Positions 21,374 through 64,000 of a DNA stretch of 64,000 bases are shown here, in pieces. The translations under genes and the position numbers were made by a program. The stretch comes from Bacilli bacterium (GTDB lineage: Bacteria > Bacillota_I > Bacilli_A > RFN20 > CAG-826): positions 7,143 through 71,142 of the forward strand of contig JAFSPN010000024.1 in assembly GCA_017442875.1 (NCBI GenBank), written 5' to 3'. Under the pieces are notes generated by a model. It made no database searches. It was given only the letters and a program-made list of their open reading frames with translations, and was not told the DNA's origin. Numbering within the stretch: position 1 is the stretch's first letter; each line of letters begins with the position of its first letter.

Positions 21374-21402
21374 TTAACATTATTAAAATAAGCGATTATG
21401 AT
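21374..21402 (+). promoter_or_regulatory. Putative sigma70-type promoter of the thiamine leader
   Basis: TTAACA-17 nt-TATGAT. Confidence 0.4.
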
Positions 21403-21404
21403 TA

Positions 21405-21495
21405 TTGACGGGAGCTGAACGAAATTCGGCTGAGAGGGTTCTTCTTGGAACCGACCGTACCTGATCTAGGTAATTCTAGCGGAGGGAACTTTTTT
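21405..21495 (+). promoter_or_regulatory. TPP (THI-box) riboswitch
   Basis: Contains GGGAGC...GGCTGAGAGG...ACCGACCGTACCTGATCTAGGTAATTCTAGCGGAGGGAA, which matches the conserved CUGAGA and ACCUGAUCUGGAUAAUGCCAGCG..GGGA cores. Confidence 0.85.
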
Positions 21496-21512
21496 ATTTA
21501 AATGTTCTTCCT

Positions 21513-34483: not shown

Positions 34484-34879
34484 TGGTGGAGCCGAGGAGA
34501 ATTGAACCCCTGTCCCGAGAAGGCTCTTCAATAACGTCTACAGTTTAGACGATATTAAGATTTAGCATGCTTTCGTATATCGACTCACTAGGGCATGCGA
34601 GATAACCTAAGTTTCGGTGCTTGTAACTTATCGACTCATCACACCTATCCTTTTGGTATGACAACCTACCTAAGCGTGAAAGGATAAAACCTTAGGGGAT
34701 GCTCTGCCCGGCGCCTAGCGTCGGAATCCTATATCGGTTGCTTAAATTAAGCTAAGCAGAGTTGTTGAGCTCTAGGAGCTCTCATATAACTGTTGTCAGT
34801 TATTTTTATTTTGATGATAACGTCATCACTCGACTGCAGTTAGAGCCTAACCATTCCCGGTCGAAACCAATACGACCCC
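34484..34879 (-). ncRNA. ssrA: tmRNA (transfer-messenger RNA)
   Basis: 5' GGGGTCGTATTGGTTTCGAC pairs with the 3' ...GGGGTTCAATTCTCCTCGGCTCCACCA (tRNA-Ala-like acceptor with G3:U, a T-arm and CCA). An internal tag-like frame ends ...TTA GCT TAA. Confidence 0.9.
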
Positions 34880-39200: not shown

Positions 39201-39308
39201 ATTGATTAGCATTTTGTATTCATCCGTGATGGCAGTAACCGCTAAAAAGAATGTGGTAAGCAAAATGCCGACCGCGGATAAACCTAACCAAAGTTTTGAT
39301 TTTTTCAT
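36294..39308 (-). CDS. Glycoside hydrolase family 3, domain-permuted, TM helix at both termini (paralog)
   Basis: 1004 aa with SVLLKNEDENGNPVLPL, FGFGLSYTEF, KHCFLNNQETNRQG and WGYEGFVIDD, in the same permuted order as 30152-33229. Confidence 0.9.
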   Translation of the reverse strand: MKKSKLWLGLSAVGILLTTFFLAVTAITDEYKMLINDLLGIKNPYSDSNFSSYAVEGKLTNEGCMKLIKDSYDFCVQEEREGSVLLKNEDENGNPVLPLEENERRITIFGGNSANMILRSGAGGAAPNDKLVVHLNEAFELRGFTVNPTVWKLNTTAGYPSVNDVKELAPSKYTDAIKASYENDYRDAAIVTFTRVGTENEDPATGLLDLNSDEAELLKMIKNSGKFSKTIVLLNGAMPMSCNWVDDPQYGVDAVLFVGVPGYYSLAGVVDVLMGKNGNEEGATQLSPSGHAPDTFSAHASNSAAYQNFGDIRFSGKESAGDFDREKGYVTYKEGIYVGYKYYETRYEDCILNRGNANGSAGCYDGETNWAYDREVAYPFGFGLSYTEFEQTIEEVKLNTKTDQYEVKVKVKNIGDYPAKSSVQIYAQLPYTDWDVTNKLEKSAIQLCGYEKTSELAANASETVTVKFDRYFLASYDWRVNKQYILEAGDYYFAIGNGAHEALNNVLALKGATGLVDHDGNAYTAGVNTAIKVDVAEDYETFKKSHYTDEEVTNKFDDADLNYWCDSSFKFEYLTRNNWQTTFPTKLTGLTINSRMSAAMNMGNEYTKPADAPTYAELKGIEYERVLEDANGNPYKIYFKDMVDIPLHGDAIHPKTGEAMDGEEIWEEFVSQMSLKDMTISMLDNRGISAVEKVLKPDNSVTEGPEGLLATFQFGDKRKATGFATGAIYSGSWDHEIQKKFGDFYAEECLFCGVACVNAPGCNINRTPYGSRASEYMSEDAVFNYYCAANIVGAARKKGLIMNIKHCFLNNQETNRQGVATYCNEQAIREIYLRPFEGALTKGEGLGIMTSYNRIGCRYAACHRTLVEDVLRGEWGYEGFVIDDALQGENSAYTNTKAMLYGGTQMFCLDGSRGIANAVGDDGYLFRLVKQANKNIMYAMLQSSMKELTIDEALIARNKNPWWKKVVVGVDIGVGVLAAAAITMFALTILVFDKKEKKDEEVAG

Positions 39309-49084: not shown

Positions 49085-49594
49085 CTAAAATAGCGTTGAT
49101 ATTTCGGCCAAATATTTCTGTTCTCTTTTCTTTTTATATCGCTTAGAACAAACAATTTCTCTTAAATAAATGGTCTTATCAGCGTTAGAAATTATCCTCG
49201 CTTCTTTGGTTTTAGGAAATTCTTTAAAATTAACTGGCCACATATGAGACTCAATGACCTTTTTAATCTTAGGTGAGATATTAAAATCCCTCATGGCGTT
49301 TTGCGCAGCGGTATAAGGATGGGAACCCATATGATGTTTCATTTTTGAATGGTCATTTCGCCAATCATAAAGGTAGTAATCATGAAGGATAGAACCTAGC
49401 AAAATCACGTACAGGTCGCCTCTTTTGTGTCTTAAAGCCCTCTTAATAGCGAGCTTAGCGACCTTAAAAGAATGGATATAACAGTTCGATCCACGATGCA
49501 TTGAAATCTCTTTCATTTTTAAGATTTTTTCATCGTGGAGGAATGTTTGATAGATGGTTTCTAATTCCTTTTTTCTTTCTTCAGTTAATTCCAT
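49085..49594 (-). CDS. HD-domain phosphohydrolase
   Basis: 169 aa with H...HD (SILHDYY) and further His/Asp metal ligands. Confidence 0.65.
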   Translation of the reverse strand: MELTEERKKELETIYQTFLHDEKILKMKEISMHRGSNCYIHSFKVAKLAIKRALRHKRGDLYVILLGSILHDYYLYDWRNDHSKMKHHMGSHPYTAAQNAMRDFNISPKIKKVIESHMWPVNFKEFPKTKEARIISNADKTIYLREIVCSKRYKKKREQKYLAEISTLF

Positions 49595-49630
49595 ATTTCT
49601 ATTTAAACATATTTTATTGTTTAAATCATA

Positions 49631-50089
49631 TTATCTTTTCGCTAAATATATCCTTATTCCTTCTTTTAGTATTTCTGTTGCAAATATTTCATTCCCCATC
49701 ATTTGCCTGTGAGTGTGGATATCAACCTCTTTTTTTAAGTGTTCTTCCAAAGTAGCGGCTATGGCAAAGAATCTCATGCCCATAGCTGGACATACAACCA
49801 ATATATCAATATCGCTATCTGAAGTTGCTTCGCCCCTTGCATAACTGCCGAACAAATAAGCACATTCAACTTCAGGGAATTGTGATAAGACATCCTTACA
49901 AACACTTTTTATATATCCAAGGCTAAGCACACTGGCACTGCTAAGTTTTTTAACTAAATCATTATATTTCTGACTGTTGTCACTTAATTCTTCATAGGTT
50001 TGGTATGTTCTGCGAGAAATACCACAGACGTTTGCGGCTTGTATTTGTGTTAGTCCTAATTCTTTTCTTTTTTGCTTTAGTAGATTCAT
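49631..50089 (-). CDS. HTH (XRE) - minimal nucleotidyltransferase (MNT-like) fusion protein
   Basis: LLKQKRKELGLTQIQAANVCGISRRTYQTYE is an HTH. YLFGSYARGEATSDSDIDILV is a Pol-beta NTase GS..D.D motif. ATG 50089 sits 6 nt after a TATAAT box, so the mRNA would be leaderless; the longer ORF start is at 50110. Confidence 0.6.
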   Translation of the reverse strand: MNLLKQKRKELGLTQIQAANVCGISRRTYQTYEELSDNSQKYNDLVKKLSSASVLSLGYIKSVCKDVLSQFPEVECAYLFGSYARGEATSDSDIDILVVCPAMGMRFFAIAATLEEHLKKEVDIHTHRQMMGNEIFATEILKEGIRIYLAKR

Positions 50090-50166
50090 GCTTTTATTAT
50101 ATCTGCGCATTTTATTTTGCGCAACTACAACAGAAAGCGTTTTTAAAGAAAAAGTGGCACCACCAC

Positions 50167-50823
50167 TTATTCTTTATTGTCTTCCTCTTTTGGAGCTTCT
50201 TCCAAAGGAACTTCTTCTTGAGGCAATTCTGCTTGTTCGGTGACTGCCTTTTTCTTTTTCGAATCAACAATAAAGAACGCTAATGCAACAAAGAAGCCTG
50301 CACCAAATAAACCAATAACGAAGTACGGAGATTGGATAAATGACACAAAGGCACCTGCTTTAGGAACAACATTGATTACTTTGCCTCTTACGTAAGAATA
50401 TTTAACTGGAGCATCGATTGTTGAGTTTGCATCACCCTTGAAAACAACATACTTCTCGCCATTTTCTTCATATTTATCCACCACTCTGTGGCAGATTAAT
50501 AAGGACTTACCTGAATAATATGTTGCGACATCATAAATCTTAATCTCGTCGAAACTTTGATATTGTCTGGTAGTAATGACATCGTCCTTTTGAATCTGTT
50601 TCATGTCACTAGTTATATAGCTTTCATTTGCAGGATTCACTGTCGCCATTGATGGAGAAGTAATAACAGAGGTTCTTAAACCAAAGATTGGATACCTGTA
50701 TCCAGATCTGATATCGATAAAAGTAATCACAACAACGGCAAGCATTAAAGATAGCACTGTGAAAAATGCTATATTTAGCACTAATCTTGTTTTACTCTTT
50801 TTAGCCTTGTTCTCGTTTTCCAT
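50167..50823 (-). CDS. sipW: Signal peptidase I, SipW (ER/archaeal) type
   Basis: SPSM (Ser box), LICHRVV (His box), FKGDANSTID, and both an N-terminal and a C-terminal TM helix. No Ser/Lys LepB-type boxes were seen. Confidence 0.7.
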   Translation of the reverse strand: MENENKAKKSKTRLVLNIAFFTVLSLMLAVVVITFIDIRSGYRYPIFGLRTSVITSPSMATVNPANESYITSDMKQIQKDDVITTRQYQSFDEIKIYDVATYYSGKSLLICHRVVDKYEENGEKYVVFKGDANSTIDAPVKYSYVRGKVINVVPKAGAFVSFIQSPYFVIGLFGAGFFVALAFFIVDSKKKKAVTEQAELPQEEVPLEEAPKEEDNKE

Positions 50824-50824
50824 A

Positions 50825-51628
50825 TTAGATTGTCGACCAGTTATTGTCATCGGAACTATCCCAAGCACCATTCGGGACAGTATAGCAATTTCTTAAATCA
50901 TCGAGATTTAATGACAAATCTCCTGTTTGGTTCCACTTAACACCTTCGTTAAAGTTGTTATCCGCTGTTCCAGGATTCATTCTGCAGAAGATGACGTTTG
51001 TATAACCACCATCAGGAATACTCACTTCGTAGGTTCCATCGCTATCGGTATCAGCCATGCTAACCCAGGTATTCCCACCATCTTTAAAGAAATACGCAGC
51101 GAAACGGGCGCTATCTTGTGTCCAGTTCGAATTAGGCGTTAGATATAGCTTTGTTTTATCAGCCATGGCGTATGCTTCGGTAGAACCGTTATTAAAAAGT
51201 TTGAAATAGAAAGTATAAGTACTTTCGCTCATTGGAATGATGTAATTGCCATCCAAAGAAGGCGTTATATTATTGTCCCCATTCCATTTATCTTTATAAG
51301 TTGATGAATAGAAGTTTCCGTACTCATCAGCAAATTTTATTTCATCATCCTTATTAAGAGAAACACCAGAAATAGTAAATTCTTTAACTTTTCCTTCTTC
51401 AGGAGACATGGTATTTGTCATATCTGTTAATTTGTTTCCGTTTAATTGAGCCCAAGCTGGTGTCGTAAAAGAACCTCTTAAATAGAGATCTGGGAAAACA
51501 CCTTCAAAAGCAACTGCAATACTGTTGCCCATATTTTGGTAAAGAGCAAAGCTCTTACCAATTGAGGCAGTAACTAATATCGCACATGCTGGGAGCAATA
51601 TAAGCGGAAATAATTTCCTGTTGTTCAT
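50825..51628 (-). CDS. Secreted protein with SipW-type signal peptide and two starch-binding-module-like domains (P3)
   Basis: The signal is MNNRKLFPLILLPACAILVTASIGKSFALYQNMG. The patterns LYLRGSF..W...EIKF and NW..SARFAAYFF..W..M...YEVSIP..NVIFCR..WNQTGDL resemble CBM48/20-like and CBM25/26-like modules (pattern recall only). Confidence 0.55.
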   Translation of the reverse strand: MNNRKLFPLILLPACAILVTASIGKSFALYQNMGNSIAVAFEGVFPDLYLRGSFTTPAWAQLNGNKLTDMTNTMSPEEGKVKEFTISGVSLNKDDEIKFADEYGNFYSSTYKDKWNGDNNITPSLDGNYIIPMSESTYTFYFKLFNNGSTEAYAMADKTKLYLTPNSNWTQDSARFAAYFFKDGGNTWVSMADTDSDGTYEVSIPDGGYTNVIFCRMNPGTADNNFNEGVKWNQTGDLSLNLDDLRNCYTVPNGAWDSSDDNNWSTI

Positions 51629-51724
51629 AATTCTGTTTCGTTTAATAACACATCAGCAAGATCAAATCTTGGACAGATAAGGCCTATTAAGGTTGCCTTT
51701 TTCAGTCTTACCTTTAGTTTTTAA

Positions 51725-52723
51725 TTAGTCTTGATAAATGTTGGTGTCAACAACGTTGAATCCGCCTCTATCCTCGCCTTTGTAAGTTACAAAGTATGTG
51801 ATTGCAGGATCGCAAACAATGTTCGCAGAGTTGTCGGCTTTTGAACCAAATTGTGCCCATTTTGTTTCGTTCCAAATATCAGCGGTATCTTTTCCGTTTT
51901 TATTTAATAAAACTTTCATGGCAGAGAATGAGTGATTGGCATCACTATTTAAGTCTTTGAAGCACCATTCGTATGTACCGGCACCAAGATTTGGAACCAT
52001 GCCATATTCGTCTTCGATGGTCCAACCTGTACCATCACCAACGATATATGGTCTACCAAAATCATTGTCAGGTTCAGTATAGGAAACATCTAATGCGTAT
52101 TGACCTTCATCTAAATCGACGAAATCAGCGGCAGAAATATCATTTAATGATACTGTCACGTGAACTGTTAAATACTTATTATTTGTGACAGCAGTAGCCA
52201 TATCCGCAGCAATGCTTGTTGGAGCAGGAATATGAGCACTAATTGTATTAGCGTCTTCAGCACCTAATGTTCTTGCGGATAATGAATCGGCTTTGGCCCA
52301 ATAATTTTGCTCTACTGTTTCAACGATGTGTGATTCATAACCATCAACATAAGCACTGATAGAGAGATTGCTCGCTAATGAGCCTGATTTTGTGATTGAT
52401 AATTTACCAATAATGGCATCTTGTTTAACTAAACCAGGAGAAGCTGTTGCATATCCAGCAGCAATTTTGAATGAATATGTAACGGTATTATTTGTTGGGG
52501 ATAAAGCAGCGTTTCCGCTTTCGACGGTAAAGCCTTCGTTTCCAGCAGCAACAAGTGATGATAAATACTTATAAGAACCGCCAGATGGACTGTAATTAAT
52601 ACCACCGAATCCAACGCCTTGCTCAACGCCGAAACCGCTTTGATAAAGGGCGAACGCAGCGCTCATCGAACCAATTGTACCTAGAGAGGCAATAGCAATA
52701 GCCAATAATTTACGTTTTTTCAT
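51725..52723 (-). CDS. Secreted protein with SipW-type signal peptide, beta-rich N-domain and C-terminal CBM-like module (P2)
   Basis: The signal is MKKRKLLAIAIASLGTIGSMSAAFALYQSG. Strong RBS GGAGGC. The C-terminal YIVGDGTGW...YEWCFK...FSAMKV region resembles a carbohydrate-binding module. Confidence 0.55.
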   Translation of the reverse strand: MKKRKLLAIAIASLGTIGSMSAAFALYQSGFGVEQGVGFGGINYSPSGGSYKYLSSLVAAGNEGFTVESGNAALSPTNNTVTYSFKIAAGYATASPGLVKQDAIIGKLSITKSGSLASNLSISAYVDGYESHIVETVEQNYWAKADSLSARTLGAEDANTISAHIPAPTSIAADMATAVTNNKYLTVHVTVSLNDISAADFVDLDEGQYALDVSYTEPDNDFGRPYIVGDGTGWTIEDEYGMVPNLGAGTYEWCFKDLNSDANHSFSAMKVLLNKNGKDTADIWNETKWAQFGSKADNSANIVCDPAITYFVTYKGEDRGGFNVVDTNIYQD

Positions 52724-52736
52724 AAACTATGCCTCC

Positions 52737-53303
52737 TTATGCGTTAGCCCAAGCAGAATTCAATGTTACTGTTCCGCTCAAAGTTTCATTAGCGCCGATT
52801 GGTGAACCATCATAATCAAAAGCAATTGCAAAGTAAGCGCTTGTTGCATGGCTTGCAGAATCATCGTCAACTGTGAATGTTGCGTTACCGGTTAAATGGC
52901 TGCCATCTAACTCAAATCGCTTGTTTCCTTCGACAGCGTATGTCGCAACGTTTTCAGAAGTGATCTCTGCACTTGCTTGATAAACTGTGACTGTTAAGCC
53001 AGTAAGAACGCCTGTTTTTGCATTGGCATCTTGTGCAGCCAAAGTGAATGAAATTGTGACAGTACCAGCAACGCTCTTAGAAGAATTAACTGTTGCACCA
53101 ACATAAGAATATTGGCGGACACCACCTTTAAGAGATTCAATTGATGGAATAGAGTTTTGATTCCAAGAAAACACTACTGCACTATCAACGTTGTTTTTAA
53201 TCGCGCCATTAGCAGCTGTTGTTGTTAAAGCGACTGCGCCACCGACGCTGCCCAATAAACAAAGTGCCATTACGCCGATTAAAGCATTTCTTTTTAATCC
53301 CAT
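52737..53303 (-). CDS. Small secreted beta-rich protein with SipW-type signal peptide, TasA/CalY-sized (P1)
   Basis: 188 aa. The signal is MGLKRNALIGVMALCLLGSVGGAVALTTTAANG. The mature part is rich in Thr, Ser, Ala and Val with alternating beta-strand patterns. Confidence 0.55.
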   Translation of the reverse strand: MGLKRNALIGVMALCLLGSVGGAVALTTTAANGAIKNNVDSAVVFSWNQNSIPSIESLKGGVRQYSYVGATVNSSKSVAGTVTISFTLAAQDANAKTGVLTGLTVTVYQASAEITSENVATYAVEGNKRFELDGSHLTGNATFTVDDDSASHATSAYFAIAFDYDGSPIGANETLSGTVTLNSAWANA

Positions 53304-53526: not shown

Positions 53527-54447
53527 CTAGCCTAGTGCAATATACACTTGGTCTTGTTGATACTTAATCTTGATATAGATTTCAGAAGCGTTGAAGTCTT
53601 GTAAGACTGTGTAGTACTTCTCATCGCCTGATCTAGCGAGATACTTTTGCCATTCGTTTGGTTGGGTTTCAGAACCACCAAATGAGTACTTATCGATTGG
53701 GACAGTCCATGTGCCTTTACTACCGAAATCATAAAGGGCGAATTCTTGACCTTTTTTGAATGCACGCTTCGAGAATTTATATTGCTGGAAGCCATCAAAT
53801 GGATCAACTTCTTGGCCCGCCATATAGGCTTCGTGAGCTCCGAAGAACTTGAAGCCGAAGCCAGTTCCTGTCGCTTCTTCTGCGGTCGCAGGTGTGAATT
53901 CACTTGGAGTGACACTACCGCCACCACCGCTGGAACCACCACCTGATCCACCACCTTGTGATGGGTTGTCTGGATCTTCGCCAAAGGAAGCATATAGAAT
54001 CGCATCCTTAATTGCTGGAACCTTGGTGTATTCGGTTAATTTACCATCGTTTTTATACATTACCCAGTTAAGGAAAATTCTTCCTTCGACTGCGGAGGTA
54101 ACTTTATCTTTGCCTGGTAAATCACTACCAACGGTCATATTTTCCATCTTCTTAACATGTTCTAAGAATAAGGAATCTTCTTTAGTAGTTACTAATTCGC
54201 CTTCGTATTTGCCATATTGGCCAAACACTAAGTAAACAGTAATTTTTTCGCCTGTAGGAGTATCATCTGGCGTTTCATGTGGCGCTGGATTTGGAGGCGT
54301 GACACTTGAAGTATCAGGTGAAACTGAACTTGATGGAGTAGGAGTCGCACTCTTACCACCTGGTTTGCCTTGTCCGTTATAAAGGACACAGCTCGATAAA
54401 CCTAGTGTGAGGAGTGGGATTAATAAGAGTAATAATTTCTTTTTCAT
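53527..54447 (-). CDS. Lipoprotein, starch-locus accessory (repeat-domain plus Gly/Ser linker plus C-terminal domain)
   Basis: MKKKLLLLLIPLLTLGLSSC contains a lipobox. A GGGSGGGSSGGGGS linker is present. ATG 54447 lies 8 nt after GGAGG. Confidence 0.6.
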   Translation of the reverse strand: MKKKLLLLLIPLLTLGLSSCVLYNGQGKPGGKSATPTPSSSVSPDTSSVTPPNPAPHETPDDTPTGEKITVYLVFGQYGKYEGELVTTKEDSLFLEHVKKMENMTVGSDLPGKDKVTSAVEGRIFLNWVMYKNDGKLTEYTKVPAIKDAILYASFGEDPDNPSQGGGSGGGSSGGGGSVTPSEFTPATAEEATGTGFGFKFFGAHEAYMAGQEVDPFDGFQQYKFSKRAFKKGQEFALYDFGSKGTWTVPIDKYSFGGSETQPNEWQKYLARSGDEKYYTVLQDFNASEIYIKIKYQQDQVYIALG

Positions 54448-54459
54448 CATCATGTCCTC

Positions 54460-57018
54460 CTATTTTTTAAATGCCGATACGGACCATTTAACCGCACCGA
54501 TATCGCCACCAGCAGCGCTTGGAGCGCCACCCATGGCCTTGATATTTGTGTAACCACTACCTGGATTCATTAAGTAGCTACTTTGATCACGGCCAGTATT
54601 GATATAAATCCATAATTCTTTACCGTCACCATAGACGTGTAAGCCTAAGACGTTACCGCTTGAACTCTTATATTCAAGTTTGGCGCCCTTTGGATATTGT
54701 TTCTTGATTTCAATCAAGTCTTTATACCACTTGTACATGGAATTGGAATCCGCTTTTTGTTGATCAACGTCTTTTAGGCCAGCATTATAAGAATCAAATT
54801 CAAATTTGTATTGACCAGATTTGTAATTGGCTCTCTTTGTGCTGTCTGCCCATTTGAATGGTTGACGGTACCAAATATCTTCGCAGTTTTCACTACCATA
54901 GGTGGCAACGTGTGTGTCTGTATTAGAAGACATACCAAGTTCATCACCATAGTAGATCCAAGAACAACCTGGATTTAATAATGTGATTGCCGCGTGGACT
55001 TTGGCTTTATAAACTTGATCGCCATCACCAGTGACTTTATTTAATGGTGTGGTATCCATAACTGTTGCGCCAGTTCCATTAGCCTGGTTAATCGCTCTCA
55101 TAACGTCGTGGTTAGAAGTGAATGCACCATCGATGAAGTCTGGTCTATTGCCACCAGGAATGTTGTAGTTTTGACCATTGTTTGTAATAGTGACATCATT
55201 CGCGCTCGCAAATGGAACGAATGTTTCACTCGCTTGACTATTATCAAAGTGTGTCGCACTGCCTGCATCAGAATATAAGTATGAGCAGATATGATAATAG
55301 GTCGCGAAGGAGAACTGAGAATCCATCGCTTGATAATATGGAGCGGTTCTTGTGCCCCAACCATCGAAGTTTTCACCGACTAAGAAGCAGTTTGGATAAT
55401 CGGCTTTAACACCATGGGCGAATTCTTTCCACCACATCATGTTCTTGGTTAAGTTAGATGAATAGTCGTATGCTTTAGTAATATATCTACCTTTTTCATC
55501 GTCATAGCTTTCTTTACTACCAACGTCAACGATAATGTAGTCGCCTGGTTGGAAACATTCATCTCTCATGAAGATGTGTTTGACTGCGTCAAGACGGAAG
55601 CCATCTAAACCAAAGCTCATCCAGTATTTAGCCATATCAATGACTAATTTCCTTGTTGATGAACTTAAGTAATTAATTTCAGGCATACCACTACCGAACT
55701 TGCCATAATAGTAGTAATTGGACTCACCATCTCTATACCATGATGGATTGTCGCTTTCAGCGTCCTCTTGGACAGTAATTGTTTCATAGGATCCTGTAGT
55801 AGGATTATATTTTTCAATACGGTCTGTCGCGTATTTCCAGTTATAAACGTCTCTCCAGTTCATACCAGTGGCTTCATCTTTTACACCCCATTGGGAGTTA
55901 ATGAACCAGACGTTGCTCTTACTGGTGTGGTTGAGAACTAAGTCCATCAAGACCTTCATGCCTTTTTGATGAGCTTTATATAATAATTCACGATAATCTT
56001 CAATTGTGCCGAAGCGTTTATCAACGGCGAAGTAGTCAGAAATATCGTACCCGTGATATGAATCAGACTTTTGAATTGGTGTGAGCCATAACGCTTGGAC
56101 GCCTAATTCGCTTAAGTAATCTAATGAATCAATAACACCACGGATATCGCCAATGCCATCACCATTGCTATCTCTAAACGAGGCAACAAACACTTGATAG
56201 CCAACACCAACATCTTTGAAACTGTCAGATGTTGAGCTGACGCCTAGGTTATTGCTATAAGCAGCGTTGAAGTCACTACGATAGTTACCGGTGGTATCTA
56301 AATCGATTGGGTTAGTAATGGCATCTGGAACTCCTTCACCAACGCGATAACGATAATCATACAACGCACCAGTACTGACGAAGATGTGGATGGCTTTACC
56401 ACCACCGGCTAAAGTACGCCAGTTTTCTGTATTGGCAATATCGTCCAAATATGTTTCTCTACCACCATCAGACACCCAGTTTGTTTCACCACTCATTGAG
56501 CTTTGTCTTGGTAACAAGAAACCAATTTCATTCATGCCTTCAAAGGAAGTTTCTTTGCCAGTCTTACCACCGACAAGATTTGCAGCTTTAAGATCGACAT
56601 CAGCAATAACACCAAATGAGTCAACATACATGTCATTACCTTCTTTGCCGACTTCTTCAGCGGTCATCCAGTGAGTGGTCATTGGTTTTAATTCGACATT
56701 CTTTTCAGCATTAACCACAGGATTCGCGGAGAAGGCATATAAAGCACCTTCTAAGTCTTCTGGGGCGTGTTGCCATAACCAAAGGCAGTAGTTTTCATAT
56801 TCGCCTTTACTACCTCTGTTATAGTGGAAATATAGGTGGTCTGGTTGGCTCCAAGAGTCTAACCATTGATCGTATGCATCAGCGTCGTCTACTGGAATAA
56901 TAGGAGCGGTGCCACCACCTCCACCTTGGGAATTACTTCCTGAATTACCACTAGGACTACCATTACAGGCACCTAATAGTAATAAGGGAATTAAAAGGAA
57001 AACGAGTTTATTTTTCAT
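54460..57018 (-). CDS. GH13 alpha-amylase/neopullulanase-type lipoprotein
   Basis: MKNKLVFLLIPLLLLGAC contains a lipobox. GH13 regions DLVLNHTS, GFRLDAVKH, a GENF region and FTSNHD are present, preceded by an N-terminal pullulanase-associated-like domain. Confidence 0.9.
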   Translation of the reverse strand: MKNKLVFLLIPLLLLGACNGSPSGNSGSNSQGGGGGTAPIIPVDDADAYDQWLDSWSQPDHLYFHYNRGSKGEYENYCLWLWQHAPEDLEGALYAFSANPVVNAEKNVELKPMTTHWMTAEEVGKEGNDMYVDSFGVIADVDLKAANLVGGKTGKETSFEGMNEIGFLLPRQSSMSGETNWVSDGGRETYLDDIANTENWRTLAGGGKAIHIFVSTGALYDYRYRVGEGVPDAITNPIDLDTTGNYRSDFNAAYSNNLGVSSTSDSFKDVGVGYQVFVASFRDSNGDGIGDIRGVIDSLDYLSELGVQALWLTPIQKSDSYHGYDISDYFAVDKRFGTIEDYRELLYKAHQKGMKVLMDLVLNHTSKSNVWFINSQWGVKDEATGMNWRDVYNWKYATDRIEKYNPTTGSYETITVQEDAESDNPSWYRDGESNYYYYGKFGSGMPEINYLSSSTRKLVIDMAKYWMSFGLDGFRLDAVKHIFMRDECFQPGDYIIVDVGSKESYDDEKGRYITKAYDYSSNLTKNMMWWKEFAHGVKADYPNCFLVGENFDGWGTRTAPYYQAMDSQFSFATYYHICSYLYSDAGSATHFDNSQASETFVPFASANDVTITNNGQNYNIPGGNRPDFIDGAFTSNHDVMRAINQANGTGATVMDTTPLNKVTGDGDQVYKAKVHAAITLLNPGCSWIYYGDELGMSSNTDTHVATYGSENCEDIWYRQPFKWADSTKRANYKSGQYKFEFDSYNAGLKDVDQQKADSNSMYKWYKDLIEIKKQYPKGAKLEYKSSSGNVLGLHVYGDGKELWIYINTGRDQSSYLMNPGSGYTNIKAMGGAPSAAGGDIGAVKWSVSAFKK

Positions 57019-57019
57019 A

Positions 57020-57439
57020 TTATTGTTCTCCTTTCTTAATCACAGCTTCTTCATCCTCTTTTTCTTTGGCTTTTTCAGCGTGCTTAAGGACTAAGCCAAA
57101 AGACACTAAAGCGCCCATTGAGAGGAGATAAGCTGGAATAGCCGTGCCTTTATAAGCTGCAGAGTTTTTTGCGGTGATAATCTTAAAGTCTTCGTTGACT
57201 TTGTTCCACCATACTGCAGCGCTATGATAGGCACTTGTGTTAGTATCTTCTAACGCTGTACTATCAGCGTCGAGGATTTTATTTAATCTGTTTTGACACA
57301 TTAACTGTGTATTTAAGGAAGCTTGATATTTAGCTTTCTCATATTGAGAAATCGTAAAGAAAGTCATCGCTAAAACAGCACATCCACCGATGATACCAAC
57401 ATAGGCTAAAAGTCTTTTTGTTTTTTTAGCTAGTTTCAT
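57020..57439 (-). CDS. Small 2-TM membrane protein, unknown function
   Basis: 139 aa, tightly packed between the ATPase and amylase genes. Confidence 0.45.
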   Translation of the reverse strand: MKLAKKTKRLLAYVGIIGGCAVLAMTFFTISQYEKAKYQASLNTQLMCQNRLNKILDADSTALEDTNTSAYHSAAVWWNKVNEDFKIITAKNSAAYKGTAIPAYLLSMGALVSFGLVLKHAEKAKEKEDEEAVIKKGEQ

Positions 57440-57447
57440 GTGACCTC

Positions 57448-58794
57448 CTATTCCTCAATATCAGATTTTGGTAATTCTTCTTGCTTTTCTTGTTTGACGA
57501 TGTCAGCGTCAAGCTCATAAGCATCCGCATTTGTGATATCGACAAGTAAATTCTTTTCACTTTCTGGATCAAAGAAGTGCATCGCTTTACCAGAGAATGA
57601 CACTTTGATTTGTGTACCATTGACCATATTCGCTCTTTCTTCATCGCTTAAGGATAAAGTAGGAATACGAACAATGAGTTTTTCACCTTGTTCAGTGGTG
57701 ACGTGTAAGTGATATTCACTGCCCATCATTTCATTGACTTGAATGGTCACTGGAACGCCATCTTTACCAGATGATAATTGAATATGTTCTGGTCTAATGC
57801 CTAAGATGATTGGACGAGACTCTATGTCTCTATCTAATAAGGCTTTACCTTTATCGCCATCCACTGGAAGTTTATAACCATAAGGATTAACGAAGTATTT
57901 GTTACCTTCTCTAATCAAATCGCAGTGCACGGTATTCATCATTGGGGCACCGACGAATTGAGCGACGAATAAGTTAGCAGGCATATCGAATAATTCAGTT
58001 GGTGTACCAACTTGCATAATGAAGCCATCTTTCATACAGACGATTCTATCGCCTAAAGTCATCGCTTCTGTTTGGTCGTGGGTAACGTAAATGAAGGTGG
58101 TATTAATTCTCTTTCTTAAGAGGATGATTTCCGCTCTCATTTGGTTACGGAGTTTCGCGTCTAAGTTAGATAATGGTTCGTCCATTAAGAACACTTTACA
58201 GTCTTTGACCATCGCTCTACCGATGGCAACACGTTGTCTTTGACCACCGGACATCGCTTTTGGTTTACGAGTTAAGAACTGCGTAATACCTAATACTTGA
58301 GCCGCATTAATGATACGTTCATAGATTTGATCATCGGTATAGCCTTTTTGTTTACGACCATTAGCGATTTCATCTTCTAACTTATCAGCTTTATCGTTTT
58401 TACCTTGTTTTCTAAGTTCTTCGACTTCTAAGCGCGCTTTTTCTTTTTCTTCATCGCTTAAAGGCATGATTCTTTCCTTCTTATCAATACGAAGTGGGAA
58501 CGCCATGTTTTCATAAACAGTTAAGTGTGGATAAAGAGCGTAGTTTTGGAAGACCATGGAAATGTGACGGTCTTTTGGTTGTAAGTCGTTAACGACTTCA
58601 CCATCGATACTGATCGTACCTTCAGAAATATCTTCTAAGCCAGCGACCATTCTTAGGGTTGTGGATTTACCACATCCAGAAGGGCCGACGAAGACGATAA
58701 ATTCTTTATCTTTAATGTGAAGGTTGAAGTCATGGACCGCGGTCACATTACCGGAATAAATTTTCTTAACATTTTTAATAATTACTTCTGCCAT
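57448..58794 (-). CDS. msmK: Sugar ABC transporter ATP-binding protein (MalK/MsmK-like) with helical-domain insertion
   Basis: GPSGCGKST, MSGGQRQRVA, FLMDEPLSNLDA and a C-terminal TOBE-like domain. There is an insertion of about 45 aa and an acidic C-terminal tail. Confidence 0.9.
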   Translation of the reverse strand: MAEVIIKNVKKIYSGNVTAVHDFNLHIKDKEFIVFVGPSGCGKSTTLRMVAGLEDISEGTISIDGEVVNDLQPKDRHISMVFQNYALYPHLTVYENMAFPLRIDKKERIMPLSDEEKEKARLEVEELRKQGKNDKADKLEDEIANGRKQKGYTDDQIYERIINAAQVLGITQFLTRKPKAMSGGQRQRVAIGRAMVKDCKVFLMDEPLSNLDAKLRNQMRAEIILLRKRINTTFIYVTHDQTEAMTLGDRIVCMKDGFIMQVGTPTELFDMPANLFVAQFVGAPMMNTVHCDLIREGNKYFVNPYGYKLPVDGDKGKALLDRDIESRPIILGIRPEHIQLSSGKDGVPVTIQVNEMMGSEYHLHVTTEQGEKLIVRIPTLSLSDEERANMVNGTQIKVSFSGKAMHFFDPESEKNLLVDITNADAYELDADIVKQEKQEELPKSDIEE

Positions 58795-58806
58795 AATAGA
58801 TTTCTC

Positions 58807-59673
58807 CTATCCTTTAACTGCACCACCAGTAACACCCTCAACATAGTATTTTTGTAAGAAGAGGAATAAGACCATTACTGGAATAGCGACAATGACACCA
58901 CCCGCACAGAAGTGAGCGAAGTGTTGACCGATGTTAGCGGCGCTCAACCAGGAATTAAGACCAGCGGCCACATTCATACCTGATTGGCTACCAAGTGAGA
59001 CTGTATAGGCGAACACGAAGTCACCCCATGGTCCCATAAATGATGTAAGAATTGTGTAAATAAGAATTGGTTTACATAGAGGCACGATGACCTTTAAGAA
59101 GATCTGCGCTCTTGTCGCGCCATCCACTAATGCGGCTTCATCGAGTGATTTCGGCATCGTATCAAGGAAGCCCTTAATAACGTAATAGCCCATACCAGAA
59201 GAAGCGACATAGACAAGAATTAAGCCTGGGACAGCATTATCACCAGTTAAGCCAATGCCTTTTAAGATTTGATAAAGAACAATCATTGTTAAGAAGCCAG
59301 GGAACATACCAAGCACTAACATGAAGTTCATCATTGGCTTACGTAAAGCAAATCTAAATCTACTTAAGACGAATGACATAGCAAACTGCATCGCGGTTTG
59401 CACAACGCACACCACCAAAGCGATGATGAATGTGTTGAAATACCACTGTAAGAAGTTGCATTCGCTGCTGAATAAGTAAATATAGTTATTAAAGCCAAAG
59501 GCCTTTGGTATGACGTTAGAAGTCACACCAGGATTTTCAACGTCGAATGATTTCAATACTAAGAAGATGAACGGCATAATCCAAATAATTGAAATCAAGC
59601 CTAATGTGATATAAGAGGCGATATTTCCAATACGTCTCTTCGTGGACAGTTTCATTGATTTTTTCTCTGCCAT
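58807..59673 (-). CDS. malG: Maltodextrin ABC permease (MalG-like)
   Basis: 6-TM CUT1 permease with the EAA loop LDEAALVDGA. ATG 59673 follows GAGGAGGG. Confidence 0.85.
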   Translation of the reverse strand: MAEKKSMKLSTKRRIGNIASYITLGLISIIWIMPFIFLVLKSFDVENPGVTSNVIPKAFGFNNYIYLFSSECNFLQWYFNTFIIALVVCVVQTAMQFAMSFVLSRFRFALRKPMMNFMLVLGMFPGFLTMIVLYQILKGIGLTGDNAVPGLILVYVASSGMGYYVIKGFLDTMPKSLDEAALVDGATRAQIFLKVIVPLCKPILIYTILTSFMGPWGDFVFAYTVSLGSQSGMNVAAGLNSWLSAANIGQHFAHFCAGGVIVAIPVMVLFLFLQKYYVEGVTGGAVKG

Positions 59674-59674
59674 A

Positions 59675-61159
59675 TTATTGGAAACCCTCCTCATTTCTTG
59701 TACTTGGAATCAAGTTATAGACCACTAAGGATAAGCCAGCGACCACGATAAACACCATGATACCGATGACCGCGGCGAGCTTATAGTTAGAATCGTTAAC
59801 CGCCAAGTTAAATAACCAAGTAATAAGTAAGTCTGTTTTACCAGCGTTACCGAAATACTCTTGGACATTTGGTCCACCACCAGTTAATAAGTAAATAACA
59901 TTGAAGTTATTCATATTACCCGTGAAACTGGTTAATAGGTATGGACCAGTAATAAATAACATATATGGTAAGGTGATCTTGGTGTATTGTTGGAAAGCAT
60001 TCGCTCCATCAATATTCGCGGATTCATATAAGTCCGCTGGAATGTTCATCAAGATACCAGTGACAACTAACATCAAATATGGAACGCCAATCCAAATGTT
60101 AACAATAATAACGGTGATTCTTGCTAACCATTGGTCGCCCCAGAAATCGATGTGGGTGCCAAATAAACCATTGATAATACCATCTGTTTTGAACATGTTT
60201 GAAACAAACAAGATGGAGATGAACTGTGGAATCGCAATGGAGAAGACTAAAACTGTTCTCCATACTTTCTTAAGTTTGATACCTTTCTTATTGATGAGCA
60301 TCGCGACACCCATACCTAAGAAGTAGTTAGTGAATGTGGCAAAGAAGGCCCAAACTAAAGTCCAAAGTAAGATTTGACCAAATGTCATGGAGAAAGATGC
60401 GCCACCACTATTGGTCCATGTAAATAATTGATTGAAGTTATCAAAACCAACCCAACCGAATAAGTTAAGCGGTGGATTATGAGCCGCGTCGTAGTTTGTG
60501 AAAGCGACGAGAATCATAAAGAAGATTGGTAAGACCGTAAAGATCAAAATACCTAATGTTGGTAAGGCTAATAAAGTCTTATGGAAGTTTTTATCAACGA
60601 GTTATCTTAAATCATCCATCCCAGTCTCAAGTTTCTTTTGATCCTTAAGGATTTGTTCATTAATTCTATTTTGTTTAATATTAAGGTTCCATGTGTATAT
60701 GAACGCGACGATGAAGAATAAGGTCAAAACGCCATATAACATGATGTTAAATGAGTTTTCACCATAAATAACTGTACCATCGTCAAGTGTTTGGGAAGCT
60801 TGTGTACCTAAGATATATAATCTTGATAAGTACTTACCACCAAAACCAACCATATAAACGATGAAGATAACTTCAAAGGCAAAGAAGAGAAGACCTCTTA
60901 AAATTTGCTTTCTTGTCACATTACCAAAGCCCATGATGAAGTAAGAAACTTTTGTCTTCCAATCACCATGCACAAATGTGAGACCTAAATCTCTAATCCA
61001 ATGCCAGATACCAATACCGAGGTTTTTAAAGAACAAACCGATTTTGATACCGAGGTTTTTTAGCTTGCCTGGGATGGAAGCGAAGAACGAAGTGAATTTG
61101 ACACCAAATCGCTTCATCTTACCCATCTTTAGCATTTCTAAATCTGTGTATTGCTTCAT
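59675..61159 (-). pseudogene. malF: Maltodextrin ABC permease (MalF/MdxF-like) interrupted by one in-frame TAA at 60602-60604
   Basis: ORFs 61159-60602 and 60547-59675 are in the same frame. The 18 codons between them are open (LVDKNFHKTLLALPTLGI). Joined, they give a typical 8-TM MalF with the EAA loop YESANIDGA. Confidence 0.7.
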
Positions 61160-61170
61160 GGTCTCACCTC

Positions 61171-62466
61171 CTAATCTTCACTTAATAAATCAGGTAAACC
61201 GTTCTTATAGTTATTAAGAATGGCTCTGATTTGATCGTCGGTGCTATTAGTTGTCACTGCTTTAGCAGTTGTGCTTAAAGCGACGAACCAAGCACCTGGA
61301 CATTGTCCTTGTTGTTTAGCGTATTCGTGTTGTTTGGCTAAAGCCGCTAAACCTGGGTGTGATTTAACTTCGTCTCTAGCGGAGGCATCATTATTTGTTG
61401 GGCCCCAAGAAACTTCTTTAAATCTTTCTGTTTGGCAACTAGCACCAGTCAAATATTTCGCTAATTTTCGACACACGGATGCTTTCTTTGCATCGACTTG
61501 TGGCTTAACGCCCATTAATTTATAGCCATCGAATGAACTTAAGTGATAATCTTGTCCATCGACGGTAAAGTATGGCATTTCCGCACAACCTAAACGATCT
61601 GGCCCAATTCTATTAAGGGCGACTTCATATTCCCAAACACCAGAGATAACCGCAGCAGCGGTACCATTGAGTTTGGATGCTTGCGAGTTAGAAGCGACCA
61701 CTGATGTATCAGCGATTTCTTTTAAGCCTTTAGCGGCAATTAAGCCTTTATCATCACTTGCGAAGTCATCTTCGTAACCCACGAACTTACCAGATCTTTC
61801 ATCGAGTTCCCAAGTGGAAGAGCAACCTGTTGCTAAGAAGTAGCTAGCGGCATAGAAGCCGTTACTTCTACCTTCAAAGTTAAGAACTTTTCCAGCGGCT
61901 CTACATTTCGCTAAGATGCTTGTCATATTTGTCGCATCAGCGTCAGAGATATATTGCTTATCGTAATATAAGAAATAACCATTATCGCTTGTGATTGGAT
62001 AAGCGTAGATATTGTCATTGATTGAAGCCGCTTTAACGGAATCCGCACTATTATTGCTTCTTACAAATGAATCGTAGCTGCCAGTTAATCTAGAAACCGC
62101 ACCAGCGACTTTTAATCTCGCTAATTGGTCTTGCGCAAAGACGAAGATATCCGCACCGCTTTGAACGTCTTGTAACATTGAGGAAGCAGCCGTTCCTTCG
62201 GATTGTGGTTCGACCGTAGCGTTAATGGTGTATTTACCACCACTAGAAGAAACAAATTCTTGAATTTGTGTTTGTGTGAGAGGAACGATTTTATCGTCAA
62301 CCCACACTTTGATGTTGTATGTGCCGGCGTCATCGATACCATCATCGACTTCGTCCATATCATCTCCACCCATTACTAAGCCTTTAATTGTATAGGAGTA
62401 TTTGAAATTACAGCTCGCTAATAAGAGGGCTGGGAGGATAAATAATAATTTAAATCTATTTTTCAT
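61171..62466 (-). CDS. malE: Maltodextrin-binding lipoprotein (MalE/MdxE-like)
   Basis: MKNRFKLLFILPALLLASC contains a lipobox. ATG 62466 lies 7 nt after GAGGAGG. The protein is SBP-sized and sits upstream of the permeases. Confidence 0.75.
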   Translation of the reverse strand: MKNRFKLLFILPALLLASCNFKYSYTIKGLVMGGDDMDEVDDGIDDAGTYNIKVWVDDKIVPLTQTQIQEFVSSSGGKYTINATVEPQSEGTAASSMLQDVQSGADIFVFAQDQLARLKVAGAVSRLTGSYDSFVRSNNSADSVKAASINDNIYAYPITSDNGYFLYYDKQYISDADATNMTSILAKCRAAGKVLNFEGRSNGFYAASYFLATGCSSTWELDERSGKFVGYEDDFASDDKGLIAAKGLKEIADTSVVASNSQASKLNGTAAAVISGVWEYEVALNRIGPDRLGCAEMPYFTVDGQDYHLSSFDGYKLMGVKPQVDAKKASVCRKLAKYLTGASCQTERFKEVSWGPTNNDASARDEVKSHPGLAALAKQHEYAKQQGQCPGAWFVALSTTAKAVTTNSTDDQIRAILNNYKNGLPDLLSED

Positions 62467-62480
62467 CTTCATACCTCCTC

Positions 62481-62960
62481 CTATTCATTACTGACCCAAA
62501 TACCATAAAGGTTAAGGATGTTAAATTGTTTATAGTCTTGTTTGAAGTCCCAAAGATTAGAGCCAATTGATGATGGATACTCTGAATAACCTAAGAACTT
62601 CGTATAAAGAGGATCGGCCGCATTAGCGCTTGTTAACATCGCTTTAGCTGGGCATTCACCTAAAGGTTTGAGCATGTACCATCTCATAACGTAAACTGGT
62701 TCGTTAGCGTTAGCTTGGACATACTCTTCATCGGTCTTATCTGTTGATGGAAGTTCACTATGTGAATAATCCAAATAGAAATAGATGGTCATATTGAATT
62801 CCGCGTCAATATCCGGAAGAGCGGGATCCGCACCTTCGTTTTGATTGAATGGATCGCCTGGATATGGCATATCCTCTCCTGGATCATAAACATAGTTATT
62901 ACAAGCCGCTAAGGCTGGAATGAGCAATAAGCTCATAAGAAATAATTTACTCTTTTTCAT
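62481..62960 (-). CDS. Small lipoprotein, starch-locus accessory
   Basis: MKKSKLFLMSLLLIPALAAC contains a lipobox. GGAGGGC RBS. The C-terminal F.GY....W.....LYGIW pattern resembles the Listeria-Bacteroides (InlB B) repeat. Confidence 0.5.
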   Translation of the reverse strand: MKKSKLFLMSLLLIPALAACNNYVYDPGEDMPYPGDPFNQNEGADPALPDIDAEFNMTIYFYLDYSHSELPSTDKTDEEYVQANANEPVYVMRWYMLKPLGECPAKAMLTSANAADPLYTKFLGYSEYPSSIGSNLWDFKQDYKQFNILNLYGIWVSNE

Positions 62961-62972
62961 CTTATTGCCCTC

Positions 62973-64000
62973 CTAATTATTCGTACCATGACGGTCATAA
63001 TATAAGACCGCATTGTTAGCCACTCCACCAAAGTGAACAGCGTTATCATAAACGTTGCCAGTTGGAGAAATGCCATATTCAAATTTTAATGACCAAGCAT
63101 TCATCTTATCGCAGTCGCATTGGATGTAGTCATTAGCGCCAACAATACCAGCACATGTATAAACAAACGCTTCGTTAGCTTGGAATGCTACAGCATTACC
63201 AAAGTTACCAGCTTCTGACCAGTATCTATTCATAACACCTGCACCTGCGGAAGTTGAACCAACAAAGGCGCCATAGCCATTGTTTTCGCCTCTCTTCTTG
63301 AGTAAACCCTTATGGGATTTAATCAAATCAGCGAACTTTTCAACGTAATGGAATACTTCATTAGTAATCTTATCGTTAGCGTCATGACCAATGACTTCAA
63401 CTTTGTTACCCCATTTGAAGGAGTTGAGTTCTAAAGGAGCGTTATAGGAGTTGTGAGAAATCTTATGACCCCACATCTCTGTATAACTATCTTTAGTGAC
63501 ACCAGCGTAATCTTCTGGATTGATGCCTTTATATTCTTTTGTTCTTAATAACTCTTCACCACCGAGGATGAAAGCGGCGCTATTGCCAGCCATCACTAAG
63601 GCGTGAGCTTGCAAAGAACCTCTCATAATCGATTCGATTGTAGCAGGTCTACTACCATCCGCGCTCTTTGGCATTGTATTAAAGAGTTGATCTCTCACTG
63701 TCCAGTTATCGTGACAGGACACGTAGTTAACGGTTTGTTCTGGATAGTAACCAGCAATTTGACCGTTAGTGTTAACGTTTCTATTAACGCCCCACATGCC
63801 GTCTGAAATCTTATCTAAACGATCGTAATCACAGTACCAATTACCGTTACCATCTTGTTTCCAGTTACCGGTTTGGACAAAACCCGCTTGTGGGTAAGTG
63901 ATTTCTTGACCCCACATACTGTTTTCGCCTCTCACAGCGTTTCTAAAGCAGTCATTGAAACCGCCTAAGTATGTACTTTGAGGATTGCCTTTAAATTGAT
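62973..64000 (-). CDS. Pullulanase / GH13 debranching enzyme, C-terminal part (5' end beyond the window)
   Basis: The frame is open to the window edge (..QFKGNPQSTYLGGFNDCFRNAVRGENSMWGQ..). NYVSCHDNWTVRDQL is the pullulanase-type region IV. Confidence 0.8.
   Translation of the reverse strand, partial: QFKGNPQSTYLGGFNDCFRNAVRGENSMWGQEITYPQAGFVQTGNWKQDGNGNWYCDYDRLDKISDGMWGVNRNVNTNGQIAGYYPEQTVNYVSCHDNWTVRDQLFNTMPKSADGSRPATIESIMRGSLQAHALVMAGNSAAFILGGEELLRTKEYKGINPEDYAGVTKDSYTEMWGHKISHNSYNAPLELNSFKWGNKVEVIGHDANDKITNEVFHYVEKFADLIKSHKGLLKKRGENNGYGAFVGSTSAGAGVMNRYWSEAGNFGNAVAFQANEAFVYTCAGIVGANDYIQCDCDKMNAWSLKFEYGISPTGNVYDNAVHFGGVANNAVLYYDRHGTNN

Follow-up and report, generated by a model that had tools for sequence, protein, structure and literature searches.

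A SipW-type signal peptidase cassette linked to starch utilisation in uncultured gut Bacilli

Results

A bounded four-gene operon

A 64-kb stretch of the genome of an uncultured Bacilli bacterium (contig JAFSPN010000024.1, positions 7,143 to 71,142 of the forward strand) carries a compact operon that encodes three small proteins with signal peptides, here named P1, P2 and P3, together with a signal peptidase of the SipW type. We call this whole stretch of 64,000 nucleotides (nt) the window. It originates from a 308-kb metagenomic contig, and the operon region is identical in the database record of that contig. An earlier note, made from the sequence alone, had described four co-directional genes separated by a terminator from the unit upstream; all four open reading frames (ORFs) are indeed present on the minus strand, arranged head-to-tail in the order P1, P2, P3, signal peptidase (Table 1), and the terminator is real. 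It consists of a GC stem (AGCCACT...AGTGGCT) followed by TTTTTT, folds at -20.3 kcal/mol (z = -3.6), and is equalled by none of 200 shuffled sequences. At the other end, a terminator-like hairpin found by a consensus scan lies directly 3' of the peptidase stop codon. Since terminators are found on both sides, the four genes form one bounded transcription unit. A purine-rich, Shine-Dalgarno-like stretch precedes the ATG of P1. The peptidase ORF as listed overlaps P3 by 47 nt; its real start is probably Met17 (about 50823), because the first 16 codons overlap P3 and are absent from most homologues in a 24-sequence alignment.

Table 1. Features of the operon and its surroundings (window coordinates; aa, amino acids)
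Feature	Residues	Coordinates	Strand	Basis or remark
P1		52737-53303	minus	188 aa ORF
P1 signal	1-25	53229-53303	minus	predicted cleavage AVA|LTTT
P2		51725-52723	minus	332 aa ORF; 13 nt gap after P1
P2 signal	1-25		minus	predicted cleavage AFA|LYQ
P2 N-domain	about 26-221	52061-52648	minus	conserved mature N-terminal segment ...N/D-x-IGIG...
P2 C-domain	222-332	51728-52060	minus	motif VRGDxSDW...MVPN...EW
P3		50825-51628	minus	267 aa ORF; 96 nt gap after P2
P3 signal	1-28	51545-51628	minus	predicted cleavage SFA|LYQ
P3 SusE/F-like N-domain	45-150	51179-51496	minus	homology via L004 domain
P3 CBM26-related C-domain	156-267	50828-51163	minus	hhalign to CBM26
Signal peptidase I, endoplasmic reticulum (ER)/archaeal type (SipW/Sec11-like)		50167-50871	minus	234 aa ORF as listed
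Intrinsic terminator ahead of P1		53484-53507 (about)	minus	sequence and fold; closes upstream GH13/lipoprotein unit
Terminator-like hairpin ending operon		50152-50168	minus	consensus scan; 7-bp stem, then T-run
Flanking starch-utilisation genes		53527-63935	minus	Pfam and NCBIfam

The peptidase belongs to the Ser-His-Asp type

The peptidase possesses a hydrophobic helix at its N-terminus and another at its C-terminus, and it has a Lys/Glu/Pro-rich tail. The earlier note had pointed to SPSM, CHRVV and KGDANSTID boxes, a C-terminal transmembrane helix and a SipW rather than LepB arrangement, and each of these elements is present. Among 24 aligned homologues, the predicted catalytic set, comprising Ser74 (SPSM box), His128 (CHRV box), Asp147 and Asp153 (GDANxxxD), is invariant, as is Met75, which follows the serine. 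Two NCBIfam models match, and no others: TIGR02228, the archaeal-type signal peptidase I (2.9e-10, 40.3 bits; cut-off 51.85), and NF046067, the Bacillus SipW (4e-8, 33 bits; cut-off 190). No Pfam model matches at E <= 1. When a profile of the 24 homologues was compared with solved structures, the best matches, which are weak, were human SEC11C and SEC11A (E 0.04-0.08), with the His and Asp-x-x-x-x-x-Asp boxes of the peptidase falling on IVHRV...KGDNNxVDD. Because of the invariant residues, the matches to SipW and archaeal models and the SEC11C/A alignment, we assign the enzyme to the Ser-His-Asp, ER/archaeal type (MEROPS S26B; SipW/Sec11), and not to the Ser-Lys LepB type.

A search of the protein database produced 133 homologues. 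Their sole source name is 'signal peptidase I', and Pfam assigns no domain to the peptidase part of any of them; the enzyme represents a divergent clade beyond the reach of curated models. Distant members of the family, in enterococci and in metagenome-assembled genomes (MAGs) of Mollicutes, adjoin proteins that match TIGR04090 (BsaA family) or TIGR04088 (cognate signal), and the wider family thus keeps company with classical SipW substrates. In one relative, L010 (we number related loci with L), a Pfam Peptidase_S26 gene of the LepB type lies about 0.6 kb past the cassette, so that in this genome at least the SipW-like enzyme is a second, specialised peptidase.

Two further observations were made on the peptidase family. 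Eight homologues of 350-400 aa (P0013, P0041, P0049, P0071, P0082, P0097, P0105 and P0108) carry a fused DUF2188 domain (PF09954), and one of these DUF2188 fusions also has PF22251. In Enterococcus pallens, Ca. E. ferrettii and Ca. E. moelleringii (L023-L065), each genome contains 13-15 paralogous cassette copies. These combine three TIGR04090 BsaA-family proteins with a LepB-like fragment, a cell-wall amidase and a SipW-like peptidase whose N-terminus is long and disordered, often with a tyrosine-recombinase-like ORF upstream; such multiplicity is unusual for a matrix-protein system.

A three-substrate cassette conserved in relatives

We collected related cassettes by scanning species-representative genomes (about 20 loci, with peptidase identities of 34-56%) and by exact look-up in three more metagenomic contigs. 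The resulting 23 loci repeat the combination of P1, P2 and the peptidase with one more protein that bears a signal, at peptidase identities of 34-57%. The hosts are known from MAGs of gut origin with labels such as Bacilli, Mollicutes and Candidatus Fiminaster, and the samples of this lineage come from rumen, horse and human gut. In these relatives, homologues of P1 (about 190 aa) and of P2 (300-380 aa) are encoded directly upstream of the peptidase, with P1 immediately ahead of P2 in 18 loci, and P1 is the most uniform component of the cassette. The third substrate precedes the peptidase here and in L003, L020, L083 and L085; in most other loci it lies past the peptidase, where it measures 300-450 aa. 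As the third substrates of all loci and P3 align as one family, P3 represents a conserved third substrate in its short form and is not an accessory insertion. 'Hypothetical protein' is the only source name carried by homologues of P1, P2 or the third substrate.

Linkage to amylolytic genes

In agreement with the earlier note, the operon is directly preceded by genes for starch utilisation. Moving upstream from P1, these encode a 308-aa lipoprotein, an 852-aa GH13 lipoprotein amylase (Pfam 1.8e-75), a 139-aa membrane protein, MalK, MalG and MalF, and then a MalE-like substrate-binding protein, a 159-aa lipoprotein and a pullulanase-like protein whose gene is cut by the window end. In L003 the same starch genes occur in another order, with the cassette between malK and the GH13 amylase gene; in the window it comes after both the GH13 gene and the gene for the 308-aa lipoprotein. 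As its position differs between the two, the linkage of cassette and starch genes has survived rearrangement. Conservation beside amylolytic genes, which the earlier note had named as a check, clearly extends to the relatives: a GH13 or pullulanase homologue is found within 10 kb of the cassette, in the sequence examined, in 14 of the 23 loci (L014 also has GH77 and malEFGK), and three more (L019, L020 and L084) have a CBM26 in the cassette or in an adjacent lipoprotein. Of the six loci left, four are contigs shorter than 10 kb. No amylolytic gene occurs in the flanking sequence examined of L010 and L017.

The malF-like permease gene (59675-61159, minus) is split by an in-frame TAA at 60602-60604. 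The copy of the contig in the European Nucleotide Archive (ENA) has C for A here, which turns the stop into a sense codon; the homologue in L003 carries Ala at this place. Window and ENA contig differ at 3 of 20705 bases, the other two being at window positions 45110 and 44370. Either the strain is a variant whose transporter is broken, or the base was called wrongly. Genetic code 4 was considered for this codon and rejected, since the interrupting stop reads TAA and five genes terminate at TGA. Two neighbouring products without a family match, the 308-aa lipoprotein (53527-54453, minus), which has a Gly/Ser linker, and the 139-aa membrane protein (57020-57439, minus), are kept with GH13 and malK in L003 and may be further parts of the starch system.

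Family-specific signal peptides

Among ORFs of at least 90 aa, a simple screen for hydrophobicity and lipoboxes singled out P1-P3 as the only proteins of the window whose signal is cleavable and not of the lipoprotein kind; the seven others that it classed as exported have lipoboxes. The motifs that the earlier note had quoted after the hydrophobic core of each signal are present as described, and they are family features, kept in about 20 related loci. The P1 family has the consensus GGVGT-A-x-A|L-T-R with an invariant Ala25, while the P2 family, in an alignment of 16 loci, has F-G-T-A-F-A|L-Y with Ala25 and Tyr27 invariant; third substrates show N-H/S-A-L/F-A/S-x-Y or S-F/Y-A|L-Y. Within each family, conservation continues past the A-x-A rule to positions +1/+2 (Leu-Tyr or Leu-Thr) and to an upstream Gly-Thr. 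A G-T-x-x-A-aromatic/Leu motif at the end of the hydrophobic region is present in the P1 and P2 families, and a sipW-type gene is adjacent in 23 loci. Moreover, P2 and the third substrates have in common a mature N-terminal stretch, A-L-Y-x(6-9)-N/D-x-I-G-I-G/S, whose spacing, as we presume, recalls the N-terminal strand of TasA and camelysin.

The claim that these signals belong to the SipW-cognate class stands in part. Profile comparison of the P2 family with enterococcal BsaA-like proteins that match TIGR04090 places FGTAFALY on SGTFAWIT (hhalign 44%, E 2e-4), an alignment that covers the signal and about 20 residues beyond, so that the signals are in register with those of the BsaA type. 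The formal part of the claim falls, since P1-P3 lie outside the TIGR04088 cognate_SipW model, a 34-position model with a 19-bit threshold for which a neighbour in L064 served as positive control (20.4 bits).

Starch-binding-type modules in P3 and probably in P2

The third substrate gave the clearest domain assignments. The third substrate of L004 matches Pfam SusF_SusE (PF16411) over residues 153-266 (31.2 bits, cut-off 27.5), and the family of P3 N-domains aligns with the family of this L004 domain by hhalign (96%, E 3e-9). For the C-domain, a profile built from 30 diverse copies of the module matches four Pfam-positive CBM26 (PF16738; CBM, carbohydrate-binding module) segments at 98.4% (E 6e-15, 75 columns), and on account of this profile-profile match we consider it a divergent relative of CBM26. 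P3 itself has no direct Pfam match, CBM26 and PF16411 included. The view of P3 as two starch-binding-type modules, put forward in the earlier note, is thus upheld through transitive homology; alpha-glucan binding as such is a prediction, and the more specific likeness to CBM48/20 that the same note suggested is conjectural. Elsewhere in the third-substrate family, one further member contains a CBM26 (7e-15), and the L084 member, of 154 aa, has a single CBM26 and nothing else besides the special signal and the N-terminal stretch.

In the AlphaFold2 model of P3, the C-domain is a beta-sandwich with a predicted local distance difference test score (pLDDT) of about 95, the N-domain scores 60-75, and the mature N-terminal stretch is detached and of low confidence. 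The top Foldseek probabilities for this model are those of SusE (0.99), CBM41 (0.94) and CBM25 (0.91), all at E > 1e-3; matches to CBM25 have probabilities of 0.5-0.9 and template modelling (TM) scores of 0.40-0.43, also at E > 1e-3.

The C-terminal module of P3, about 105 aa long, is widespread. An exhaustive search with P3 returned at least 1884 representative proteins, and residues 150-267 account for nearly all of these matches. Among the best 150 matches, 371 copies were counted, with up to eight per protein; tandem arrays of 2-8 copies are frequent, in surface proteins that reach about 4700 aa, and CBM26, pullulanase X25 and AMPK-type CBM domains are interspersed among the copies. Within the proteins examined (P0132-P0281), it is covered by no Pfam model. 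It looks like an unclassified family of starch-binding modules.

P2 was described in the earlier note as ending in an added module, and such a module exists. By hhalign, it matches the P3-N family (62%, E 8e-5), and we take it to be probably of the same SusE/F-like type; family scans and the PDB profile search gave no other match for it. An assignment of the P2 C-domain and P3 N-domain to X25 was dropped (hhalign probability < 1%). Word-indexed searches for the P2 family returned only 7 and 8 matches, even with a profile query, and an AlphaFold2 model of P2 built from 12 sequences has a mean pLDDT of 45 and is unreliable. Foldseek of this unusable model listed viral jelly-rolls and pilins, with the TasA fibre 8aur at rank 37 (probability 0.33).

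P1 has a beta-rich mature part of about 163 aa and is without a Pfam, NCBIfam or PDB match, its family profile included. Scanned member by member against Pfam and NCBIfam, the P1 and P2 families gave noise only, and PDB sequence searches with profiles of P1, P2, the P2 C-domain and the P3 C-domain gave nothing meaningful. By hhalign, P1 and P2 align through the signal peptide alone, and neither P1 nor the P2 N-domain matched the X25, CBM26, AMPK-CBM or P3-N sets. The suggestion that P1 resembles TasA or camelysin was not borne out: Pfam, NCBIfam, PDB profile searches and hhalign revealed no homology of P1 or of the P2 N-domain to TasA, camelysin (Peptidase_M73) or BsaA (TIGR04090), and only the signal region aligns with BsaA proteins by hhalign.

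Other features of the window

Directly downstream of the operon, an ORF at 49085-50110 (minus) combines a helix-turn-helix with an MntA-like nucleotidyltransferase (NF047752, 64.5 bits). It is followed by an HD-domain gene instead of a HEPN toxin, and the two may be partners in a variant toxin-antitoxin system or in nucleotide signalling. Two proteins of about 1000 aa (30152-33229 and 36294-39308, minus), each with a single N-terminal transmembrane anchor, have a permuted GH3 architecture in which the C-terminal domain comes ahead of the N-terminal domain. The window also contains a transfer-messenger RNA (34484-34879, minus; tag DNSYMRAPRAQQLCLA) and a thiamine pyrophosphate riboswitch at 21398-21505 (plus), which scores 55.3 bits against a gathering score of 54.3.

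Discussion

To our knowledge, the one role known for SipW-type peptidases is the dedicated processing of biofilm matrix polymers (TasA, camelysin, BsaA). The operon described here has the general organization of such systems and a different setting. We think it probable that it is a dedicated SipW-type export cassette which belongs to the starch-utilisation locus and has been recruited to starch capture. P1-P3 would be made with Sec-type signals ending in small-x-Ala | Leu-Tyr or Leu-Thr, and the co-encoded SipW/Sec11-type peptidase, rather than another enzyme, would cleave them at the membrane after A-x-A and thereby release them outside the cell. P3, with its SusE/F-like and CBM26-related modules, and probably P2, with its SusE/F-like C-terminal module, would bind alpha-glucan. 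Acting together and remaining associated with the cell, the three proteins could then hold starch near the products of the neighbouring genes, namely the lipoprotein amylase, the pullulanase and the MalEFGK importer. The host may be wall-less, which would fit both the taxon labels of the relatives (Mollicutes, Tenericutes) and the dominance of lipoproteins among exported proteins.

Several results weigh against this reading. None of P1-P3 matches a Pfam or NCBIfam model directly, and for P1, the most conserved substrate, the profile searches allow no function to be assigned. The type of the P2 C-domain depends on the 62% hhalign match. Foldseek of P3 returned nothing at E <= 1e-3, and TM scores to single CBMs reach only 0.4-0.5. 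TIGR04088 matches none of P1-P3 and none of 18 P1-family members at E <= 1, nor any of 16 P2-family members at E <= 10, and the peptidase stays below every curated cut-off (TIGR02228, NF046067, Pfam S24/S26). Nothing obvious would retain the cleaved proteins on the cell. Finally, unless the base call is wrong, the premature stop in malF may leave the adjacent transporter defective.

The peptidase could instead be the general type-I signal peptidase of the cell and P1-P3 ordinary secreted proteins, whose motif merely reflects the A-x-A rule. The motifs do obey the rule of small residues at -3 and -1, type-I substrates may be few in a genome where, to judge from the window, export is dominated by lipoproteins, and a LepB-type gene was not seen in the 64 kb. 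We nevertheless find this very unlikely. The P1-P2-peptidase-third substrate synteny is kept down to about 34% peptidase identity and in different flanking contexts, sequence conservation around the cleavage site exceeds what A-x-A calls for, and L010 has its separate Peptidase_S26 gene. The occurrence of the wider family beside BsaA-type substrates, with more than a dozen copies per genome in some enterococci, is likewise incompatible with a housekeeping role. Least probable in our judgement is that the product of the cassette is a matrix for general adhesion or biofilm formation, unrelated to starch, its proximity to the amylase reflecting coincidence or shared regulation. P1 and the P2 N-domain bear no carbohydrate-related signature, and L010 and L017 lack amylolytic neighbours in the sequence examined, as such a matrix would allow; against it, the substrates themselves carry CBM26 or SusE/F-type modules, the linkage outlives rearrangement between L003 and the window, and most loci have GH13 or pullulanase within reach.

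Polymer formation is a separate question. According to the fibre proposed in the earlier note, cleaved P1 would polymerise as TasA or BsaA do, and P2 and P3 would join through their N-terminal segments, giving a filament with starch-binding modules on display. In every SipW operon that has been characterised, the exported products are polymer-forming matrix proteins, with one major and accessory subunits, and the three-substrate layout with a small, uniform P1 mirrors this arrangement. The mature N-terminal stretch common to P2 and the third substrates would be suited to (donor-)strand complementation, and its detachment in the P3 model is what one expects of a strand used in trans; a polymer would also solve the retention of cleaved proteins. 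On the other side, P1 and the P2 N-domain have no sequence or profile likeness to TasA, camelysin or BsaA and resemble each other in the signal peptide only, the TasA fibre ranked low for a P2 model that is itself unreliable, and the P1 and P2 alignments are without an invariant Lys or Asn/Asp-Glu set that would point to isopeptide bonds of the BsaA kind. We therefore hold the filament to be possible and rather unlikely. Slightly more doubtful still is its most elaborate form, a 'fibre amylosome', in which P1 would be a SipW-dependent filament subunit of new fold with P2 and P3 plugged in by an N-terminal strand, and in which a starch-capturing polymer would replace sortase or cohesin-dockerin wall anchoring in Mollicutes-like gut bacteria with a lipoprotein surface.

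Comparison with characterized systems locates what is new in the starch-capture cassette that we favour. Like tapA-sipW-tasA of B. subtilis and sipW-calY of B. cereus, it joins in one operon a Ser-His-Asp peptidase with N- and C-terminal transmembrane helices and a few small, beta-rich substrates whose signal peptides end in a special motif. Unlike them, it has three substrates without detectable TasA/TapA/camelysin homology or a TIGR04088 match, two of which carry starch-binding-type modules (that of P2 being probable), and it resides in a sugar-utilisation locus of uncultured gut Bacilli or Mollicutes-like MAGs and not in a biofilm regulon. The product of tapA-sipW-tasA is a polymer, with TasA assembling by donor-strand exchange (PMC9674648, PMC10151520). 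The sipW-bsaABC operon of Clostridium perfringens comprises the peptidase, the small major protein BsaA and two accessory proteins, BsaB and BsaC (PMC7395162). The present cassette has the same count of one peptidase and three secreted proteins, distant members of its peptidase family adjoin TIGR04090 proteins, and the P2 signal is in register with enterococcal BsaA-like proteins. It differs in that the peptidase gene comes last (third in most relatives), the mature parts have no BsaA homology, there is no two-component regulator, and carbohydrate-binding modules are present.

The nearest counterparts in starch capture belong to other export routes. SusE and SusF of Bacteroides thetaiotaomicron are, like P3 as predicted, non-catalytic proteins of tandem beta-sandwich starch-binding domains encoded within a starch locus; SusE is also the top Foldseek probability for P3, and the L004 third substrate matches SusF_SusE. 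SusE and SusF are lipoproteins sited in the outer membrane of a diderm and matured by signal peptidase II, whereas P1-P3 lack a lipobox and are encoded together with a type-I, SipW-like peptidase of their own; their lineage is monoderm or wall-less. Among Gram-positive gut bacteria, the amylosome of Ruminococcus bromii and Amy13K of Eubacterium rectale present CBM26-type modules extracellularly for starch capture. Amylosomes and sortase-anchored multi-CBM amylases use cohesin-dockerin scaffolds or LPXTG/sortase wall anchoring. No cohesin-dockerin or LPXTG/sortase element was seen in our sequence and domain scans, and export in the present case would instead proceed via a dedicated SipW-type peptidase, as predicted from the genes. 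A literature search for SipW together with starch, carbohydrate-binding modules or Mollicutes retrieved nothing relevant. SipW-type peptidases with cognate substrates are known as such; the use in a starch locus, and the lineage, would be new.

Conclusions

The analysis defines three families that no Pfam or NCBIfam model matches: P1, P2 and a CBM26-related module of about 105 aa. It also describes a private peptidase and a few substrates with private signals that appear to be wired into a nutrient-acquisition locus, with starch-binding-type modules on the substrates. If this reading holds, the cassette would provide gut bacteria with a third route for presenting glycan-binding proteins, beside the lipoprotein-based Sus system and the wall-anchored or cohesin-dockerin systems, and this route would occur in a poorly known, uncultured lineage.

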